DNA from: Nitrosopumilus sp.
GTDB taxonomy: Archaea > Thermoproteota > Nitrososphaeria > Nitrososphaerales > Nitrosopumilaceae
NCBI GenBank assembly: GCA_965219345.1
Contig: OZ244732.1
Span: forward strand, 1,344,001 to 1,408,000
Direction of reading: 5' to 3'
Length of the DNA: 64,000 nucleotides
Below, in pieces: positions 16,227-58,100 of this stretch. Under the pieces are notes generated by a model. That model was not told the origin of the DNA, searched no databases, and worked only from the letters and a program-made list of their open reading frames with translations. Position 1 is the stretch's first letter. Each line of letters opens with the position of its first letter. The position numbers were made by a program, and so were the translations under genes.

Positions 16227-16640
16227 CTAGATGTATTTGAAAATTATTGGTTTGTCTGAATCAGTATGTTCAGAAACTAGTGCAAAGTTGTATAATGGAT
16301 ATTCTTTTTTGTATTGTTTCATAAAACTCCAAGCAACATCATGTGTTTTGAATTCAGTTCTAATGCCGTCAATTTGGCTCTTTTTCCCAAATACATCGAA
16401 TGTTATCACTGAATACTGTTTTGGACGATTATGGGGCCTTGCCTTAACAAGCCAAAACAGTGCAAAAGCGAAGACCGATCCTAAAATTATGTACTCGCCA
16501 GCCATTTTGAAGAATGTCAAAAAGATTCCTGGTATGGTCTGTCCAAATAAAACAGCCATAAAATTTGAAAATGTAATTACTGCAAATACTGTAACAAGGT
16601 AAGTTTTGTAATCAAAAATTTTTTGAAAACAACTTTTCAT
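16227..16640 (-). CDS. Membrane hypothetical protein
   Basis: Two N-terminal TM segments plus a soluble C-terminus. Confidence 0.7.
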   Translation of the reverse strand: MKSCFQKIFDYKTYLVTVFAVITFSNFMAVLFGQTIPGIFLTFFKMAGEYIILGSVFAFALFWLVKARPHNRPKQYSVITFDVFGKKSQIDGIRTEFKTHDVAWSFMKQYKKEYPLYNFALVSEHTDSDKPIIFKYI

Positions 16641-16769
16641 CTATTTTGATAGAGTCTTTTTTCATTTAACTATTTCCTAAAACTTGATGACATGTATAGT
16701 CCAGAAAGTAGTATACCCCCCTCAAAATAGGAGGGACGCATACTGACTGAAGCAAGACGCAGAATTGAG

Positions 16770-17885
16770 ATGATGGTACGTGGGTTCCTAAAGCGCACAC
16801 AGAGGTGGAGACATATCGGAAGGCACCGCATCAGGGTCATAAGAAAACTTGACGAGTCAAAGGTAAAGTGGATAATCCTGCAGAAGAAGGCCGGCAAAAC
16901 GACCAACAGACAGATTGCAGATACCATGGGCATCTCCGAGATCTGGGTAAAGAAACTGTGGGCCAGGTACAAGGGTGTGGAACCTGACAGGATAGTCTAC
17001 CCGGCTAGCATGGGCAGGCCCGAGAATGGTCTTCCGGGTCGCAGGGAACACTCTGCGGTCCTCTCTGCACACTGCAGGCACCGCCAGGGGGCCGTCCGCA
17101 CGGAGCGACTGATCGAGGAGGAAGAGGGAATACATATCCCTCACAATGCCGTACACGGCATAATGAGGGACAACAACCTGTCGGCAAGGCAGCCCAAGAA
17201 GAGCAAGAGGCGCAAGTGGATCCGCTTTGAGCGCACCTACTCCAACTCGATGTGGCACACAGACTACAAGCAGCTGGATGACGGAAGGTGGTTTATCGCC
17301 TATCTGGATGACGCCTCCAGGTTTATTGTCGGATACGGCGTCTTTGATCAGGCCACCTCCAGGCACGCAATCGAGGTTCTCAGGGCAGCAATGGAGGCGC
17401 ACGGCAAACCCGCGTCCATTCTGACTGACCGCGGCAGCCAGTTCTACGCCAACGAGGGGCAGTACAAGAAGAAAGGCGCCTCCGAATTTGAGCGGGAGCT
17501 GGTGTCGCTGGGCATCAGGCAGATCCTGGCGCGTGTAAGACACCCGCAGACAAACGGCAAGCTCGAGAGGGTTCACGGTGAACTCCAGCGCAAACTGCAC
17601 CTCTTCGAGGAGGAGTCGGCCTACAGAACGGTGCGTTCAGCAGGATCCGAGACGGACCGTGTGGGCGGACCGTTCAACACGAAACCAAAGACGGATCCCG
17701 TGGAGCGGTTTGTGGAATGGTTCAACCACGACCGGCCACACATGTCACTTGATCTGGACAACCTAGAGACACCGGCGCGGGCATTCACCAGAAAGATGCC
17801 ATCCCCAGGACGGTGCTGTCCAAATCCTCCCGGAAAAATCCGCGAAAAGCTTATGGATCATGAATCATCCCGTAATGCTTTTTGA
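16770..17885 (+). CDS. IS481-family transposase; native C-terminus displaced by an insertion at 17811
   Basis: WHTDYK, YLDDASR, TDRGSQF, HPQTNGKLER and FNHDRPH motifs; residues after KMPSPG derive from the inserted IS5 end. Confidence 0.92.
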   Translation: MMVRGFLKRTQRWRHIGRHRIRVIRKLDESKVKWIILQKKAGKTTNRQIADTMGISEIWVKKLWARYKGVEPDRIVYPASMGRPENGLPGRREHSAVLSAHCRHRQGAVRTERLIEEEEGIHIPHNAVHGIMRDNNLSARQPKKSKRRKWIRFERTYSNSMWHTDYKQLDDGRWFIAYLDDASRFIVGYGVFDQATSRHAIEVLRAAMEAHGKPASILTDRGSQFYANEGQYKKKGASEFERELVSLGIRQILARVRHPQTNGKLERVHGELQRKLHLFEEESAYRTVRSAGSETDRVGGPFNTKPKTDPVERFVEWFNHDRPHMSLDLDNLETPARAFTRKMPSPGRCCPNPPGKIREKLMDHESSRNAF

Positions 17886-19052
17886 TCACGGGACATGGCA
17901 CACATCTAATGTCTTTGAAAAGAAAGAAGCGTGAGAGGGCAGGCGCGCAGTACGACGCCCATGTCAGGCAGTATCGCAGGCATGCCAGGAACGCCAATGC
18001 CAGAAAGTATCGCAACTATAGGGCATACGAGGGCAGGCGAAGGGAGGAGGGCAGAACCATAAGGGCGAGGATCAAGAAACTCAAGAGATTGATCCCCCAC
18101 CGTATGGAAGGATGCCTCCGATGACGCGGCCGCCTTGCTGTGCGTGCTGGATATGGCGTTCCGGAACCACTCGTACAGGGTTCATGTCACGTACATGGAA
18201 CTGCACCCGGGTTCGGTAAACGCCTACGGCCTAAAAAGCATTCCATCAAAATCGACCCTGCACAACATGGCGGTGAAGCTGTCTGCCCAGATGACATGCA
18301 TCATGGAACTGTTGATGGCACAGGCAGGCAATGATGCCTGCGGCACGCTTGCAGGCGACTCGTCGGGGTTCTCCATATGAGGTACGAGGACGGAGGATGC
18401 CAAGAGGGGAGTCGTGTCCAGACGCAGGTTCGACAAGCTGCACGTGCTTGTGGCGCTCCGCATGGCATGATATCTGCCTGCGAGGTGACACATGGAAGGG
18501 CGCACGACTCGCCGGTATTCCGCACGATGTTTGCAAGGATCTCACATGGTTCGGGGCACGTGCTGCTGGACGCGGCCTACCTTGCAAGGAAGAACTGCCG
18601 GGCCATAGCAGACAGCGGGCGCCGGTCCGTGATATGCCCAAGGAGAATTCTGTTCCCCGGGGGTTTGGTCCGATGGGAAGGATGCTTAAGTGGCACCGCG
18701 ACGATCCTAACGGATTCAAAAAGGCGTATCACCGGCGCAGCCTGGTGGAGGGCGTCTTCTCTGTGATCAAGGAGAGGTTCGGTGCCGTGGCACGCGCAAG
18801 GACTGCCCCGATGAGGCGGGTGCATCTGAGCCTCATGTGCATATGCTACAACCTGGTCGCATGATGCCATCACTGCTGGAATGCTGTGTCTGGCCTAGCG
18901 CAAGCTGTATTCTGGCACTCCGTTTTGGTGCGGAATTGTGAAACCATGCATGTTAGCCCGTCTAATTCGGCCGTACGGGTTGATTTGTCCTCATATCCTT
19001 ACACCAAAAGTCATGCAATCAGTGTCCAGAATTGGCAAGTTTGGACAGCACC
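17812..19052 (+). mobile_element. IS5-like insertion sequence (1241 bp)
   Basis: Perfect 13-bp terminal inverted repeat GGTGCTGTCCAAA (17812-17824) / TTTGGACAGCACC (19040-19052). Confidence 0.85.
17882..18864 (+). pseudogene. IS5-like DDE transposase, multiply frameshifted
   Basis: Motifs spread over several frames: GDSSGFS, FDKLHV, AHDSP, LLDAAY, YHRRSLVEGVFSVIKERFG, CYNL. Confidence 0.85.
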
Positions 19053-19099
19053 ACCTTGATCGATATAGATATTTACCCCCTCCCCCCTGTAGATAGTCA

Positions 19100-20482
19100 G
19101 TGACACTAAAGAAGAGAGACAGCACTGTTGCGGCAGTCTTGATGGTTGTAGCGATAACAGCGGTAGTAACAGCAAGCGGCTACCACGCAGCGTATGGCCA
19201 GTCAGGCACCGATGCCGATGTGGTGGTTGTTCCAACGCTGAAATATAGTGTCGAGTACGGTACGATTGCCCATGACTTGGAACTGACAAGAGTACTGTTA
19301 AGCACACCATCCACGTTACCAGACCAATCTAGACTTGTTCATAATGCTATTGGTTATAATGTCACTGGAAGTCCCTGGATTGCCGTGTTTCCTGACTCTT
19401 TGAATACCATACAGGGCGGCAGTCTTGTGGCATCCGGAGAACCTATGAGACCGTACGATTTTAATAATGGCACTAGACTTGCCATAACCTGTGATACGAA
19501 CGACTTTGGCCACGACCCCACAATGCTTGCAGAGTTTGACTACATCCCCGGTGCCACGTATACCGGTACCGATACGTTTGACATTGTCATAAAAGAGTTC
19601 ACCTATACCGGTGATGCCAGATCTGCGGCCTGTCTTGTTACCGGAGAAACTAGAACCATACCCGTAGATATTACGGTAGGTGAAAAGCCATCCGTAACGT
19701 TCAGGGATGACTTTACAAAGTTCTCCAACAGTTCCGGCGTAGTCGTGCTTTATAAAATTGAAGACCTGTATGGTAAGCAACCTCCGAATTTCTCCTTTCC
19801 ATTTCCCTCCTTTGAGCCCTTTGTAAGTAATGCAAGAGTCGGACTTGACCTTCCTGAGACGACAGATAGCGGACTGCCCATAACATTAAACGCGGATCAG
19901 GATGGGAATCTGGATAATACATCATTTGTATTATATGGCACCGAGTACAACATCAGGGGCGTGTTTAGTAACGACTTCTTTTTATACAATATGACTGTCG
20001 GCCTGCCCTACGGTACCGTTGTAAATGGCGCCATCGTAGAGTCCCAAAACGAGATTGCAAGAAAGATGATTAACGTCACGCTGGATGCCGCTGACGCCGA
20101 TGTTCCAGTATGCTCGGCCAGCGTATCCGGTGATCTGGACTTTGGCAGCCTGGCATATGGCGATACTTCGGATGCAAAGTTATTAGCAGTTCAGAATACC
20201 GGCACCGGCCCTGTTCAAGTGTTCATATCTGCAACTGACTGGCTGAACAGTGAGGGTGAATCAATCATGAATGTGGAGCAGACAAGGTACTCTTTTAATG
20301 ATTCGAACGGTGCATACGGAAATAGAACCCCAATGTCTGAATCTGAAGTTTCACTTGTAGATTATATTCCACCTCCCAATTATTATTCCACCTATCTGCA
20401 AGTTCAAATTGGTGAGATCTCTGATACCTTTACAGGTCAGCTGACACAGACCATAACTACGACTGCAACCTGCAGTAGCTAG
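19100..20482 (+). CDS. Secreted beta-rich surface protein, putative adhesin (Ig-like segment plus Cys-bounded pilin-like C-terminal domain)
   Basis: Signal peptide; FDYIPGATYTGTDTF (Big_9/cadherin-like); C-terminal CSASVSGDLDFGSL...VQNTG...QTITTTATC; GC visibly higher than the host. Confidence 0.7.
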   Translation: MTLKKRDSTVAAVLMVVAITAVVTASGYHAAYGQSGTDADVVVVPTLKYSVEYGTIAHDLELTRVLLSTPSTLPDQSRLVHNAIGYNVTGSPWIAVFPDSLNTIQGGSLVASGEPMRPYDFNNGTRLAITCDTNDFGHDPTMLAEFDYIPGATYTGTDTFDIVIKEFTYTGDARSAACLVTGETRTIPVDITVGEKPSVTFRDDFTKFSNSSGVVVLYKIEDLYGKQPPNFSFPFPSFEPFVSNARVGLDLPETTDSGLPITLNADQDGNLDNTSFVLYGTEYNIRGVFSNDFFLYNMTVGLPYGTVVNGAIVESQNEIARKMINVTLDAADADVPVCSASVSGDLDFGSLAYGDTSDAKLLAVQNTGTGPVQVFISATDWLNSEGESIMNVEQTRYSFNDSNGAYGNRTPMSESEVSLVDYIPPPNYYSTYLQVQIGEISDTFTGQLTQTITTTATCSS

Positions 20483-20662
20483 CCTTTCTTATTTTTATTC
20501 ATTCATTACTACATTCTGGCCTGAGTTATCTCTAATAGCAAGTTACGAACAATGGTTTCAGAGCACATTATAAGATATGATGAACCAAGAAGTGCATTGT
20601 TTTAGGTTCTGACAAGTTACAGTGACCTATTTTTTACTGGAAAGTTTGGTGACCCGATAATG

Positions 20663-21127
20663 TCAAGAATTGTTAGATGGAGGAGACAATCCATACTGAT
20701 TTGAGGGTTTTATTTCCATTTGATTTGATGTTTCAATATTATACACAGGATCTCCGTTTACATCATGTAATCTGCTTCTGTCAATACTAGTAACATTAGT
20801 GTAAATCTTAATCTTTGTACCGTCATCTAAAACATATTCATTAAACTCTTGTGATATTGTATCATATCTGATATCGCGTTTTTCTATTGTTCTCATTATC
20901 TCTTCTTGCGAATGTTGTTTATTGTTAGGAGATCATCTCAATGCTGGATCAGTATTGACGACAATTAATGGATGAGCACCTATTCTGAAACTAGGAACAT
21001 TTTCAGTCATTTTTCGTTCTACTTTTATTAAGATTGTACGTATTTTCAGAATAGAATTATCTGAGATTTGATACTTAATCCAAGGCTCTTTTATAACTTC
21101 AAATTCAATAGATCGAATATCAGACAT
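20663..21127 (-). pseudogene. Two-repeat hypothetical protein interrupted by one in-frame TGA
   Basis: ORFs 20933-21127 and 20663-20896 share a frame and join as DPALR*SPNNKQHSQEEIMRT; halves resemble each other (EPWIKYQISDNSILKI / QEFNEYVLDDGTKIKI). Confidence 0.7.
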
Positions 21128-21431
21128 CTACACTTTTCTCAAGCGAAATATTCTTCAAGTTTTCTGTTTGATTATTCATTCTACCCACTCCTAATTCTTT
21201 TGAGCTTTCTTCAAGATATTTGAAACAATTTTCTTTAAGATCTTTAACTTTTAGAATTCGGGCAATAGATCCTCTTCACTTAGCAATGATAATCACCATT
21301 TCTCTTTACAACTAACTCAAAAGGGAATAGACATATTATTTTTGATAAAATCTTGATATTTTTTGGGTGATTTTGTGACATTTAGGAAATTTTTAGAAGA
21401 GACGTTAAAATTAGATAATATCATAGAACCT

Positions 21432-21563
21432 ATGAAGGCCAGATTTAACGGAAAATGTGTAGAATGTGGTGAGGCAATCAAAGTAGGCAAAGAAATTCTG
21501 AAAAACTCTAATGAAAGATGGATTCACAAGGCATGTTGTGATTTAGAAGAGGAATCACCATAA
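21432..21563 (+). CDS. Small zinc-binding protein (CxxC...HxxC)
   Basis: MKARFNGKCVECGEAIKVGKEI...WIHKACC; paralog at 48301-48432. Confidence 0.7.
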   Translation: MKARFNGKCVECGEAIKVGKEILKNSNERWIHKACCDLEEESP

Positions 21564-21623
21564 TTACAAAGTTGGAACAAATTAGTAACAAATTTTTAAA
21601 GGACTTGGAAAAAAGAGGAAGAG

Positions 21624-22022
21624 ATGAATATAAAATCAAGTTTAGTTTTGATGGCATCAATTATGACAGTATTTGGCATAATGATGATCCCAGCAGATAT
21701 TTCTGCAGAATCTAATCAAAACAGCATTACTGTAACTCCAATTAATGAGGAGATAAGTTTGCAAGAGACGGTCACTGCAATGAGCATTCCTGAAGACAAC
21801 AAACTTCCTTGGGGAGCAGTAGTTGGTGCGGCATCAGATTATGTTGAAAGATATCCGGTAATTATCCAAATGTACAAGGGTGAAGATCCAGTTCACGTTT
21901 CACAAGTTGATGTAAAAGGAGATGGCTCCTATGAATACAAATTCAGAGTACGAAGTCTTGATTCAAACACTGGAGAATTTGTAAATGTCTTTGAAGGGGA
22001 TTATACTAGACTTTATGCGTAA
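21624..22022 (+). pseudogene. Secreted protein truncated by an IS remnant
   Basis: Signal peptide; composition changes at about 22007, so the last residues after FEGDYT come from the IS end. Confidence 0.7.
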
Positions 22023-22493
22023 TCGCCACTTGCAAATTTTTCGAAACATTTAGATCCGCCTTGATCGCCGCCACATGCAATAGTCCCCCGAACAGATCAT
22101 ACAAAGGCTGCAAAGGGAGCTCAAAGAGAAGAACAGAACGATCAGACAGAAGGACAGGGAAGTCAGCAAGCACATCAAGGCAGTCAGCTCTCTCCGCGAG
22201 CGGCTGGAACTTGAGGATGGTCTGTGGCAACGGGTGCAGACAGGCTTGGCATGGACGCCTCGCTGCTTCACATGAGGGAGGTCATATGCGACATACTGCA
22301 AGACGGGGGCAAGATTTCTGCCATGACCGGGCTTGACGCCGGCCAGTTCGACCATATCCACGGGAAGTTTGTAAAAGAGTCAAGGAAGCACGGCAACGCG
22401 CCGCTCTTCTCCGAAGACTGCACACCGGATCCCGGAAACCGGTGCCTGCTTGACCGCAGGTCCGTCCTGCTGCTTGCGCTCTTCCGCAAGAGG
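22007..22493 (+). mobile_element. 5' remnant of an IS5/ISL2-like element (transposase N-terminus only)
   Basis: GC-rich; encodes MTGLDAGQFDHI...PGNRCLLDRRSVLLLALFRKR (HTH_Tnp_4-like); no DDE domain follows. Confidence 0.65.
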
Positions 22494-22650
22494 TCAAAGG
22501 AGAACCGTTCTTTAGGTGTCCTCCGCGATAGTCAAGCCATATATCACATATCTGACATCGTGCCTGTCCTGCTTCGTACCGGCCACCGACTACGGGCTTG
22601 GTTACTCTGAACTTTTTGCATATTTCCTTGCAGGTGCTCTTTAGTTTCAC
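22494..22650 (-). pseudogene. Cys-rich zinc-ribbon protein, 3'-truncated
   Basis: MKLKSTCKEICKKF...GGRYEAGQARCQICDIWL...NGSPLT, then runs into the IS remnant. Confidence 0.6.
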
Positions 22651-23072
22651 AACCTTGATAATCCTTCTGCCTATATGAAAATTATTTGCGCCTTACAAAT
22701 ACAGGAGTTTGAATACTTCGTCTATATCAGAAGTTGTAAATGTGCTTTGCCACATCGTTGAGCTTTACGCATCATTGGTAAAAATGCTGATTTTTGTGCA
22801 GGAAACTGAAAACAACCACGCATGTGGATCATGCGTCTACAGAGCACATTTTCAACTTTTGATATGACAATAGTTAGCTGTTCTGCCATGATCTGTCTAG
22901 TGCATTATTGCGCATGTGCCTGAAATTCTAGTCTGTTGCACAACTACGCCTAAAACCTGACTGATACCAACAATTTTTACCATTGGACAAACATTGGTGC
23001 GCCAAAAGACATTTGGATCAGGTAACCTGCTAACCATACACAGTGGCATCCACAGACAACGCACCCCAGGAC

Positions 23073-23119
23073 AAACAGTTATTGACGAACAAACGGGAGA
23101 GGAATACGATGTCAGATAG
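23073..23119 (+). pseudogene. Displaced C-terminus of the IS481 transposase
   Basis: Joining 17811 to 23073 restores in-frame KMPSPGQTVIDEQTGEEYDVR*, ending at the right terminal repeat. Confidence 0.85.
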
Positions 23120-23171
23120 GGGGTATACTACTTTCAGGATCCCACATAAAACTTGGTGACAAAAGAAATTG

Positions 23172-55177: not shown

Positions 55178-56614
55178 TTAATTTAGGATGCAATATGCAT
55201 ACGATGGAGTATATGATGTATACATGATGCTGTTTCGGTCTGCTACATGTTGCAAACCAATAGAATGACCTAATTCATGTGTCATGATTGTTTCAACACT
55301 TTTAATATCATATAATTGAAAACTTCCATCACAATTGAAGTCTCCTAATGTTACCTCTACAACTCCTTTTCCAAGATGTGCATGTCCGAGAACTCCTTCT
55401 CCAATATTTCGGACTATCCAAGTTACCCAAACATTTGCTTCATTTCTCAAATTTGTAATTTCAAATTTTATTTCAGCTTTTTGATTATCAGTATCAAATT
55501 CTTGTTCTTCCCAAAACAAAAAAGATTTTTCTAATGTACTCACATGATCTAATGGCAATCCTGGTGGTTGTTCATTGATGAATACTTTATAGTGAATAAT
55601 TACTACCTCATCAATTGTTTCATATGTTGGATTGGGAAATATTTCAGATGCCTTTTTGACCTCCTCTTCAAAATTCCATTTTACGTAATCTCTAAGAAAT
55701 TTTTTTATCACGTCTTGACTCGGGTTTGGATATTCGATAAATCGCGTCTCTTTAAAAATATTTTTTGAAATATCTCTAAGATATCTTCCAAACAAATACA
55801 ACTCACGATCTAATTCTTCCGATGATTGAGATGTTTCTTGAACATTTACGGTAATTAATCCATATTCTATCATATGTTGAATGCCTGTAACAAAAGCATT
55901 ATTGTCACTTCTATCATAAGCCCACTCCCTAGCATTATTTTTTACCCATTCTGGAATTTTATCTTCAGGAATACTCTGTATTTCTACTGGTGGAATTTGT
56001 ATTGTTTTATTTTCTATCAGATACAACAAAGCTGACATAAATTCTGAATCATTGATATCCCCTTCTGACCACCATTTCGCTATTGGTTTTACCCATTCTG
56101 GTATTGTTGTGACATAGACTTTTTCTAACCCTTTTGGTTTTTCAGTTGCTATATATGGATATTTTGTAATTACTTTTTCGATAAATTCTTTATAGTTTTT
56201 AATCACAATACTATCTGGGTCTTCTTTTAATGCTTTATCAAAGTACGTTATAGATTCTTGATATTCTCCTAGATATCCAAACCCGACTCCCATACCCGTC
56301 AATGAAATAACATCGTTTGGTCTAGTTTGCAAAACTTTGAAAAATTGCTTTAAAGATTTGTCATGTTGCTCAAGATTACTTTGTGCTATCCCTTTCATTT
56401 TTAGTGTTGAAATATTATTTGGCGAAATCTCTAAGATATCATCAAAAATTTTTATGGCTTGTTTGTATTCTCCATTGACAAAATGTTCTTTAGCTAGACT
56501 AAACATTAATTCTGGATCTTTTTCTGTTTGTGCAAACACAGTTCCTGTAAGAATGGAAGAACTTAACAAAATCAAGACTAAGAAATAAGGAATTATTATT
56601 GCATCTTTTTTCAT
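55178..56614 (-). CDS. Secreted TPR + IPEWVK-repeat + matrixin (M10-like) metalloprotease
   Basis: Signal peptide, TPRs, two IPEWVK..A..W repeats, HELGHSIGLQH and SIMY Met-turn. Confidence 0.88.
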   Translation of the reverse strand: MKKDAIIIPYFLVLILLSSSILTGTVFAQTEKDPELMFSLAKEHFVNGEYKQAIKIFDDILEISPNNISTLKMKGIAQSNLEQHDKSLKQFFKVLQTRPNDVISLTGMGVGFGYLGEYQESITYFDKALKEDPDSIVIKNYKEFIEKVITKYPYIATEKPKGLEKVYVTTIPEWVKPIAKWWSEGDINDSEFMSALLYLIENKTIQIPPVEIQSIPEDKIPEWVKNNAREWAYDRSDNNAFVTGIQHMIEYGLITVNVQETSQSSEELDRELYLFGRYLRDISKNIFKETRFIEYPNPSQDVIKKFLRDYVKWNFEEEVKKASEIFPNPTYETIDEVVIIHYKVFINEQPPGLPLDHVSTLEKSFLFWEEQEFDTDNQKAEIKFEITNLRNEANVWVTWIVRNIGEGVLGHAHLGKGVVEVTLGDFNCDGSFQLYDIKSVETIMTHELGHSIGLQHVADRNSIMYTSYTPSYAYCILN

Positions 56615-56740
56615 GTTTGTGATTTTCGATGTGGTTATTTCTATTTTATACTAAATTTAGGCTTAGATTTGCTTTTATTACATAAACAATATGACTATGT
56701 CAAAAAATCTTTAATTTATTAATAATAACGTGTTTTTGTA

Positions 56741-57091
56741 TTGACAAAAATTGATACTGGAGGAGCAATCCATGACTTGCGCAAAAAAATTCAACAGATT
56801 CAAGCAGATTTGAATCAATTAGGAGATCCTGTATCTGAAATGCCTGAATTGATTACTTCAGCAAACCTATTACGCTCAAATGAGTATCTATCAAAGGCAA
56901 ATGAAAAGAAAACTGAACTGTTATCTGCCTTCGAACAATATTCTACGGCTCTAGAAGAATTACTCTCGTCCGTTTTTGACATACAACACGATCTAAAAGA
57001 GATTCTCACAGCTCAATCCTCTATGATTTTTTCTCATCAAAAAAAAAAACAATCAAAATCAAAAGTTAAATCAAGAATTACTAAAAAATAG
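56741..57091 (+). CDS. Coiled-coil hypothetical protein
   Basis: 116-aa ORF. Confidence 0.7.
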   Translation: MTKIDTGGAIHDLRKKIQQIQADLNQLGDPVSEMPELITSANLLRSNEYLSKANEKKTELLSAFEQYSTALEELLSSVFDIQHDLKEILTAQSSMIFSHQKKKQSKSKVKSRITKK

Positions 57092-57092
57092 T

Positions 57093-58100
57093 CTACTTTG
57101 ATAAATGAATAATATCGCCTGCGATAATTCTATTAACTCTGTTGTTATCTGATACTACCAATGCCCCATCTTCGTCAATTTTGATTGCTTTTCCTTTTAT
57201 TTTTCCATCTCTAGTGTTTAACTCTACATTCTTCCCAATTGTTGATGATCTTTTTGTCCATTCTGAAATGATTTTTTTTGTTTGTTTTGTATTTAGTAAC
57301 TCATAAATTTTTTCCAATTCTACCAAAAATGTTTGAACTAACTGAATTGGTTTAACTTTCTTTTTATGTTCACTAAGAGATACCACTCCATAAAAATTTG
57401 ATGAACCCTTGAGTGTTTTCTCAATATGTTTTACATCAATGTCAAAATTTATTCCAACCCCTAAGACCATATTTTCAATTCTGTTTGATTCTAACGATGC
57501 ATCGACAAGAATTCCTGCTACTTTTTTACCTTTAATAGTCAAGTCATTTGGCCATTTCAATTCTGGAAAAATCTTTAACATTTTTTCTAATGCATTTGAT
57601 AATGCTAGTGCTGATGCAATTGGAAATAAAGTTGTAATAGAAATATCAAATTTTGGTTGCAAAATTATTGAAAGCCATATGCCTCCTTTAGGCGAAATCC
57701 ATTTTCTTCCATCTCTTCCTTTTCCTCCTGTCTGTTTTGCTGCAATTATCACAGTACCATTATTTACAGGATCATCTGCCATTTTTAATGCCTGATTTTG
57801 GGTAGAATCAGTTGAATCAAAATAATATGCTTGTTGTCCAATTACCTCTGTTTTAAGCCCTGAAGTAATCTCCCATGGAAAGAGCTCGTCTGAATTTGAT
57901 GTTAACTTGTACCCTAGTTTCTGTTTTGACTCAATAGTATATCCTAACTCTTGAATTTTTTTGATATGTTTCCATACTGCAACTCTGCTTATCTTTAAAA
58001 CATCACTCAAATCTTGACCAGATAGGTATTCTGTATTATGAGTTTGCAAAAATGTTAGGACTTTTACAAATCCTGGATTATCAAATGAATTGTATATCAA
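57093..58100 (-). CDS. birA: Biotin-protein ligase with N-terminal HTH
   Basis: SRVAVWKHI, QTGGKGR, LKWPND and KKVAGIL motifs. Confidence 0.95.
   Translation of the reverse strand: MIYNSFDNPGFVKVLTFLQTHNTEYLSGQDLSDVLKISRVAVWKHIKKIQELGYTIESKQKLGYKLTSNSDELFPWEITSGLKTEVIGQQAYYFDSTDSTQNQALKMADDPVNNGTVIIAAKQTGGKGRDGRKWISPKGGIWLSIILQPKFDISITTLFPIASALALSNALEKMLKIFPELKWPNDLTIKGKKVAGILVDASLESNRIENMVLGVGINFDIDVKHIEKTLKGSSNFYGVVSLSEHKKKVKPIQLVQTFLVELEKIYELLNTKQTKKIISEWTKRSSTIGKNVELNTRDGKIKGKAIKIDEDGALVVSDNNRVNRIIAGDIIHLSK

Follow-up and report, generated by a model that had tools for sequence, protein, structure and literature searches.

Introduction

TGT...ACA termini are a trait of insertion sequences (ISs) of the prokaryotic IS481 family, elements of the IS903 group make 9-bp target duplications, and in composite transposons of the Tn5/Tn10 type it is the ends of ISs that move passenger genes; nested ISs are commonplace in IS-rich genomes. 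Here we describe a 6.45-kb case of nesting in the archaeon Nitrosopumilus sp., in which an IS481-like element next to the gene fbp is split by a 5,252-bp interval that starts with an IS5-family element, called IS-C below, and ends inside another IS. The locus lies in a stretch of 64,000 nucleotides (contig OZ244732.1, positions 1,344,001 to 1,408,000), the window, whose numbering is used throughout. Two successive transposition events, both now fossilised, are very probably its best explanation.

In the accessible text of one description of the IS481 family, its members occur in bacteria and archaea and make duplications of 2–15 bp, which are mostly 6 bp long, with 'not a few' of about 15 bp, and related IS481EU elements are reported to have TGT...ACA termini (PMC10045372). 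Movement of passengers by a single IS is exemplified by ISEcp1 (IS1380 family), which, in the part of the source that we draw on, uses its left end together with an unrelated sequence past its right end, so that neighbouring genes travel and a duplication of the usual length flanks the whole unit; these surrogate ends resemble the true end little (PMC6061673). For Thaumarchaeota, a 2019 survey lists 244 ISs of 13 families in 20 genomes; in the portion of its main text available to us the term 'IS481' is absent, and composite transposons with passenger genes are given as not detected in archaea, thaumarchaea included (PMC6563490). A 2026 survey, as far as its accessible part goes, gives the highest IS content of any archaeal genome, 14.95%, for a Nitrosopumilus sp. 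(PMC13343696).

Results

Two parts of one IS481-like element

Positions 16693–17811 and 23064–23146 are two parts of one IS481-like element of ~1.19 kb (1,192 bp). The outer element, its target site and the element at the left border of the interval comprise the following features.

16678–16692, no strand: left 15-bp target duplication, TAAAACTTGATGACA, from the sequence and a repeat finder; a single copy stands at the empty site of the closest relative
16693–17811, forward strand: 5' part of the IS481-like element, 1,119 bp, with the left inverted repeat (16693–16720) and the transposase reading frame from 16770; 99.3–99.6% identical to five full-length copies
17803–17811, no strand: left 9-bp duplication, CCCCAGGAC, found once in all five uninterrupted copies
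17812–19053, forward strand: IS-C, complete, 1,242 bp, with terminal repeats GGTGCTGTCCAAA (17812–17824) and TTTGGACAGCACC (19041–19053)
23064–23072, no strand: right 9-bp duplication, CCCCAGGAC, read from the sequence
23064–23146, forward strand: 3' part of the IS481-like element, 83 bp, with the right CCCCAGGAC, the last 15 transposase codons, a stop at 23118 and the right inverted repeat (23119–23146)
23147–23161, no strand: right 15-bp target duplication, TAAAACTTGGTGACA, from the sequence and a repeat finder

A sequence-only reading of this stretch, made by a model, had placed the outer inverted repeats, a 15-bp duplication with one mismatch, a break in the transposase at 17811 and a 9-bp direct repeat exactly where we find them. 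The uninterrupted ~1.2-kb copies that it suggested looking for exist: a nucleotide search of the window's own genome (1.91 Mb in two contigs, the basis of all copy counts) returned five, 1190–1193 bp long and collinear with the window copy across the break. Both halves are contiguous in all five and overlap by exactly 9 bp, CCCCAGGAC. Because these intact copies hold the 9-mer once, the two copies around the interval are a real duplication. The 3' part (23064–23146) is 100% identical to all five.

The outer inverted repeats start with TGT and end with ACA, and agree at 23 of 28 positions; within them the repeat finder reports a 21-nt core at 95%. The element thus shows the TGT...ACA termini and short terminal inverted repeats of the IS481 family. 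Its transposase gene, an open reading frame (ORF) at 16770–17885 (371 aa), is family-like up to ...KMPSPG at 17811 and then runs on into 24 foreign codons, whose residues stand in place of the native last 15. Excision of the interval had been predicted to restore the C-terminus, and it does so exactly: the restored end, KMPSPGQTVIDEQTGEEYDVR followed by a stop, is also how the transposase of another, intact copy (362 aa) ends. The claim that the outer ends and the DDE core are intact also held, the repeats being identical to those of other copies and the core unaltered.

The outer transposase is a single-ORF DDE enzyme of the rve/IS481 type (Pfam rve, 52.1–52.2 bits against a cut-off of 32.6). 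Its best NCBIfam match is transpos_IS481 (NF033577), with 170.1 bits over profile positions 3–283 of 284, which misses the curated cut-off of 224; the next-best models are ISNCY_2 (83 bits) and IS3 (72 bits). Since NF033577 is the best model by a wide margin and its cut-off is missed, we call the element IS481-like, or a divergent family member. Judged by its sequence, it would represent a divergent archaeal lineage of the IS481 family. It resembles described members in its single rve DDE transposase, its length of ~1.2 kb, its TGT...ACA ends, its imperfect inverted repeats and its 15-bp duplication, and differs from them in falling below the NCBIfam cut-off, in having its nearest relatives all in Nitrosopumilaceae and, for this copy, in being interrupted.

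Homologues of the transposase occur at 36 loci in 12 Nitrosopumilaceae assemblies, with up to 9 per chromosome, and it is in this family that all the nearest relatives lie, at protein identities of up to 64%. One related IS, in another Nitrosopumilus assembly (OZ244651.1), is 1,432 bp long, has 64% protein identity and carries the same TGTATAGTCC... ends; the 15-bp duplications there are perfect around five of its six copies and agree at 12 of 15 positions around the remaining one. The sequence-only reading had thought the element unusual for an ammonia-oxidising archaeon. The 36 loci, together with the IS-rich Nitrosopumilus genome in the accessible part of the 2026 survey (PMC13343696), speak against this; the outer IS itself is therefore not unusual in the group.

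Several further observations concern this lineage. A second, diverged IS481-like element, which shares 69% nucleotide identity with the window copy, lies in the window's own genome at 1571590–1572553 of contig C1. Of the five full-length copies, four (C1:439793–440982, 970031–971221, 1462726–1463915 and 463520–464711) have a frame-shifting 2-bp deletion of CT at the position equal to window 17051–17052, which is also found in contigs of the short-read runs X2 and X5. In the copy at 463k, a compensating 2-bp insertion ~80 bp downstream restores the 362-aa ORF. The other three have no such compensation, their longest ORF being 276 aa, and it is these three that have perfect 15-bp duplications. 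The pattern may reflect mobilisation in trans, gene conversion or frameshifting that is tolerated. Finally, the IS sequences at 16693–19053 have 56% guanine plus cytosine (G+C) against 36% for the genome, and the nearest IS481-like transposase homologues (loci L044–L074) are mostly in Nitrosopumilaceae genomes with flanks of 50–62% G+C, which points to acquisition from high-G+C relatives.

The target site beside fbp

The two 15-mers, TAAAACTTGATGACA and TAAAACTTGGTGACA, match at 14 of 15 positions. Population short reads were represented by Logan contigs of runs X1, X2 and X5, and our statements cover the pieces shown (242 further pieces lie outside them). The X1 and X2 contigs over the left flank have G at 16687, which would make the duplication perfect. 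Among the other full-length copies, 15-bp duplications are perfect at three of five and absent at two of five. A 15-bp length falls within the IS481-family range of 2–15 bp.

For comparison we used 150 other genomes of the genus Nitrosopumilus, to which labels such as G007, G135, G147 and G151 refer. In 10 of 10 relatives' loci examined, a 137-aa gene adjoins fbp, the flanks are less than 160 bp apart and no IS is present; an eleventh locus (L018), which ends at a contig end, was left out of the count. The closest relative (G007, flanks 84–88% identical) has one copy of the 15-mer, TAAAATTTTGATGACA, at its empty site. An alignment of relatives had been expected to show adjacent flanks and a single 15-mer, and this is what it shows. 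Thus the intact copies, the 15-bp duplication, the empty site and the 9-bp duplication agree with the earlier proposal that the 6.45 kb is one IS481-type element with a later insertion. As a side observation, an IS-C homologue lies directly beside fbp in another genus genome (L040, G134:C1:1599300–1602500), which is probably a coincidence.

The interval is a mosaic with one true IS terminus

The interval had been taken for a discrete 'cargo unit'. It is instead a mosaic rather than a defined cargo transposon with two ends of its own: the IS5-family element IS-C is followed by 4.0 kb of host-type DNA that includes two IS fragments, and the right border lies inside one of these, IS-A. Between the borders are IS-C, a cassette with a 460-aa gene, AT-rich host-type small genes and the fragments of the two further ISs.

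Of the two borders, only the left one is a genuine IS terminus. Matches to the interval in other genus genomes begin at interval base 1 (window 17811/17812); here and below, statements on these matches cover those listed, 86 further matches lying outside them. The right border is 139 bp inside a truncated IS-A, and a terminus at 23063 was rejected because three other IS-A copies extend ~1.05–1.1 kb beyond this point. We also rejected inverted repeats for the interval as a whole, its two ends agreeing at 6 of 13 positions, the chance level.

In the window's own genome, where a search for further copies of the unit had been proposed, the 6.45-kb unit and the 5.25-kb interval were each found only once. 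Among the matches listed in the 150 other genus genomes, the longest coverage of the interval is ~1.1 kb, and exact patterns of the two junctions gave 0 matches in a metagenome contig collection.

Homologues of IS-C with 9-bp duplications in related genomes

IS-C has perfect 13-bp terminal repeats in the window. Its transposase gene (~17879–18861) is broken into three reading frames, the tblastn pieces falling in frames 2, 3 and 1. Homologues in other genus genomes are 65–77% identical and start at exactly the first base of IS-C, and intact ones encode one protein of ~320–330 aa. Against DDE_Tnp_1 (cut-off 23), the intact homologue from G147 reaches 62.5 bits and the one from G135 62.8 bits. 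The window pieces reach 20.8 bits at most because the gene is frame-broken. With NCBIfam, the curated score for IS5 was not reached: the best model, transpos_IS5_2, gave 94.5 bits, and its cut-off is 140.

Target duplications of 9 bp flank three of the five full-length IS-C homologues in G147 (GCCGTCTGC, GTGTGAGAT and CCTTCAACG), and a tandem pair of homologues in G135 is flanked three times by the 9-mer CAATCATGC. IS-C and its relatives thus combine terminal inverted repeats with a target duplication of fixed length, as is a trait of the IS5 family. The likeness extends to the IS903 group, with a DDE_Tnp_1 transposase of ~320–330 aa, a length of ~1.2 kb, 13–15-bp terminal repeats and, in the relatives of IS-C, 9-bp duplications; the differences are that the NCBIfam IS5 models stay below cut-off and that the window IS-C is a pseudogene, and the assignment is made at the level of the family, not the subgroup.

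The only other piece of IS-C in the window's own genome is a 384-bp fragment (C1:1415050–1415433, 98% identical), and no intact IS-C is left there. This fragment abuts an AT-rich repeat of ~600 bp (together C1:1415050–1416033; the repeat is also at 1591161–1591778 and 791102–791407), other copies of which run on with ACGCTGTTCCAAATTCT, resembling the IS-C end ACGGTGCTGTCCAAATCCT. The likeness could reflect recombination at short homology or an AT-rich relative of IS-C. Within the broken IS-C gene, a contig of run X1 has an additional A behind 18376 and an additional TG behind 18391, and an X2 contig agrees with the window; either the pseudogene varies in the population or one of the assemblies has an indel error here.

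Discussion

Order and route of the two insertions

In the first event, a 1,192-bp IS481-family IS, whose inverted repeats are 28 bp long and imperfect and which encodes a single DDE transposase of 362 aa, entered the ~40-bp spacer between the 137-aa membrane-protein gene and fbp, duplicating 15 bp. In the second, a 5,252-bp segment entered this element 74 bp before its right end, duplicating CCCCAGGAC. The cutting and joining was most probably done by an IS-C-type transposase, because the segment starts at the IS-C left repeat and relatives of IS-C make 9-bp duplications. Such an enzyme may have skipped the IS-C right repeat at 19053, so that the segment ran through 4.0 kb of neighbouring host DNA, taking along a gene for a putative surface or secreted protein of 460 aa, four small genes and the remnants of two further ISs, and ended at an arbitrary point 139 bp inside IS-A.

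A surrogate right end, as in ISEcp1 transposition units, is the route that we tentatively favour by analogy, at somewhat less than an even chance. The geometry is compatible with a one-ended unit, in that the 9-bp duplication encloses a segment with the IS-C left end; the surrogate end would be a single instance, and its likeness to an IS end is at chance level. As in ISEcp1 units, the left end would be used and the element's own right repeat skipped, and an IS-typical duplication surrounds the whole. Unlike ISEcp1, IS-C has an IS5-type DDE_Tnp_1 transposase, and the case is a single one for which we found no independent repeat. We know of no description of one-ended, ISEcp1-like behaviour in IS5-family elements.

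The order of events is informed by run X5, in which a 922-nt contig passes from 17255–17802 straight to 23064 and extends, with 1 mismatch, as far as 23400 within the fbp flank, while IS-C has depth 0 in most bins. The contig suggests a strain with an uninterrupted IS at this site, so that the IS came first and the load second.

Several observations weigh against this account of order and route. The X5 contig is a de Bruijn assembly through a repeat and may follow a wrong path, and the left flank (16400–16633) has no cover in X5. No Logan contig among the pieces shown crosses the junctions at 17811/17812 and 23063/23064, which is uninformative because Logan contigs end at repeat borders. The right border shares 6 of 13 positions with the end of IS-C, a score equalled or bettered at 350 of the 3,998 positions of the passenger DNA. 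Two of the five G147 copies of IS-C and one G151 copy have no duplication, so the 9-bp rule rests on four events; no matching 9-mer was found within ~9–10 kb on each side of these three homologues, nor was a second case of IS-C carrying neighbouring DNA found around them. A donor-like junction of IS-C with the 460-aa cassette is absent from the 150 other genus genomes.

Somewhat unlikely, in our view, is a route by which a composite of host DNA between two copies of IS-C, the right one inserted in IS-A at its position 139, moved into the IS481, making the 9-bp duplication, after which the right-hand IS-C was cleanly excised. Such a composite would account for the arbitrary stop in IS-A, which abuts the duplication with no end-like sequence, and relatives of IS-C do occur in multiple, even tandem, copies in other genomes. 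It requires an extra rare event, however, in which one IS was lost exactly and its flanks were rejoined. There is no trace of a second IS-C end at 23063, and IS-C sequence behind 23063 occurs in no contig among the loose ends shown (35 others lie outside these). Where a composite transposon has two ISs of the same kind bracketing its passengers, the unit holds one IS-C, and elsewhere in the genome an IS-C end motif occurs in the 384-bp fragment only. The locus is like composite transposons of the Tn5/Tn10 type, and like IS-in-IS nesting, in that IS ends move passengers and one IS sits inside another; it differs in its one IS-C and in its outer 'arms', which are halves of a single IS481.

The order of the two events could in principle be reversed, the nested 6.45-kb unit having formed elsewhere and then transposed whole to the site beside fbp. 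The 15-bp duplication flanks the whole unit and by itself does not tell the order. We nevertheless regard this reversal as quite improbable, given the X5 contig that joins an uninterrupted IS481 to the fbp flank in a run from which IS-C is essentially absent, and given that no other copy of the nested unit occurs in the window's own genome or among the matches listed in the 150 genus genomes. Templated break repair from the flank of another IS-C copy was ranked low, as improbable, because the genome holds no template locus. An assembly artefact, the interval having been misplaced between the halves of a repeat, is scarcely credible: the IS481 is a six-copy repeat, parts of the interval are also repeated in the genome, and short contigs end at every repeat border with none of those shown crossing the inner junctions, but a mis-join would not yield an exact 9-bp target duplication of the length typical of the element at the junction, the assembly consists of only two contigs, and the unique interval has about the depth of its flanks (35–97 vs. 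41–45 in X1; 214–303 vs. 148–189 in X2).

Mobility today

The sequence-only reading had held that the structure may still move as a single cargo transposon. Our results do not bear this out, as the unit is single-copy, its outer transposase lacks the last 15 residues and its inner one lies in three frames. The present structure looks like a decaying one-off scar rather than an active cargo transposon, and we consider current mobility of the 6.45-kb unit as a whole improbable. Judging from the sequence, it could be moved only in trans, by transposase from other IS481 copies.

The strongest form of the opposite view is a working compound transposon, in which the IS481 ends and an IS481 transposase, from this or another copy, move the 5.25-kb load. 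The two outer repeats are undamaged and do not differ from those of other copies, the local DDE core is intact with only the last 15 residues replaced, and the 362-aa ORF is kept in two other copies. Moreover, three copies with the common 2-bp frameshift lie at separate sites with perfect 15-bp duplications, which suggests that mobilisation in trans works, but the shared frameshift could also have spread by gene conversion. An active transposon would be expected in more than one copy, or to be polymorphic in presence with duplications of its own; here, the genome has a single copy of the unit, none of the matches listed in the 150 genus genomes covers the whole load, the junction patterns are absent from the metagenome contig collection, and neither a circle junction nor an empty-site variant was seen. 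The local outer transposase has a foreign C-terminus, the inner transposase is dead and no intact IS-C remains. A working compound transposon is thus very unlikely. A combined scenario, in which IS-C moved 4 kb of neighbouring genes one-endedly by skipping its right end and the landing in the IS481 made a 6.45-kb element that can be mobilised in trans, seems doubtful to us.

The locus provides a well-documented case of IS-in-IS nesting in an IS-rich Nitrosopumilus genome. For annotation, it defines both a 15-bp-duplicating IS481-like lineage native to Nitrosopumilaceae and an IS5-like element with 9-bp duplications. Host genes enclosed in a 9-bp duplication of transposase type are direct sequence evidence of an IS moving passengers within or into an ammonia-oxidising archaeon. 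Since composite transposons are reported as undetected in archaea, such a segment is of some note, albeit as a single, decayed example. Should the event prove repeatable, it would offer a route to duplicate and spread accessory genes in organisms where, in the accessible text of the 2019 survey, passenger transposons are reported undetected (PMC6563490). If the one-ended reading is true, the load would include an intact member of a fast-expanding surface-protein family, and the element would belong to a class that the same part of that survey gives as undetected in archaea (PMC6563490). The significance is limited because this is one event, for which two routes come into question.

Passenger sequences

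The passenger DNA between IS-C and the right border comprises four features.

19054–20495, forward strand: passenger cassette with an intact 460-aa ORF (19100–20482), which has a hydrophobic N-terminus, and an upstream box CCTTGATCGATAT...poly-C
20496–22007, no strand: AT-rich host-type DNA, 33% G+C, with small ORFs at 20663–20896 (reverse), 20933–21127 (reverse), 21363–21563 (forward) and 21624–22022 (forward)
22008–22924, no strand: IS-B fragment, whose first ~250 bp are the end of a ~310-bp repeat resembling a miniature inverted-repeat transposable element (MITE), the rest being unique and G+C-rich
22925–23063, forward strand: the opening 139 bp of IS-A, an IS5-like element of ~1.2 kb whose terminal repeats, TAGTCTGTTGCACAAC, are perfect over 16 bp; the fragment stops at the junction

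At least 10 stretches paralogous to the 460-aa cassette occur in the window's own genome, 73–92% identical and with sharp common borders, including the same 5' border. Paralogues lie at C1:331687, 402769, 485111, 1249783, 1431123, 1442585, 1448920, 1451440 and 1582593, several of them clustered at 1.43–1.45 Mb. All cassettes begin at the upstream box CCTTGATCGATAT..., followed by 10–15 C, and the DNA before the box is unrelated. The 460-aa protein has no Pfam or NCBIfam family match. An Atlas search with it returned unnamed clusters only (score 0.90, low recognition), and a search of 5.8 billion proteins gave six relatives, of which five are on its own contig, so that in this search the family is nearly restricted to the one genome. 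Its members may be variable surface proteins that share a conserved promoter, or the cassette may be mobile.

In the AT-rich stretch, the 132-aa ORF at 21624–22022 (forward strand) has lost its 3' end to the IS-B fragment. Positions 21187–22007 are 97% identical to C1:1248466–1249290. That second locus neighbours a paralogue (75%) of the 460-aa gene, and its sequence takes another course beyond the position corresponding to 22007; in most genus genomes, the stretch 21187–22007 is conserved at 70–89%. The passenger DNA has 33% G+C against 56% for the IS. Its copy at 97% identity in the same genome, its genus-wide conservation and its low G+C indicate a host origin.

IS-A has copies at C1:57k, 803k and 1590k that begin where the window IS-A begins. 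Their extents are ~56150–57338, 803860–805100 and 1590317–1591110, and a further copy (1852279–1852399) ends at position ~120; the transposase is split over several frames in both copies read (57k and 803k). IS-A and IS-B were considered as makers of the 9-bp duplication and rejected, the left end of IS-A facing the wrong way and IS-A copies having no 9-bp duplication. In the IS-B fragment, 22224–22610 and 22282–22650 have no Pfam match, and IS-B-related copies lie at C1:54690–55007, 1716265–1716572 and 1841312–1841402. The first two are MITE-like elements of ~310 bp with terminal inverted repeats of ~35 bp (TAGACTTTATGCGTAATCGC...) and a poly-T run after one end, and they have an end in common with IS-B at window 22008–22254.

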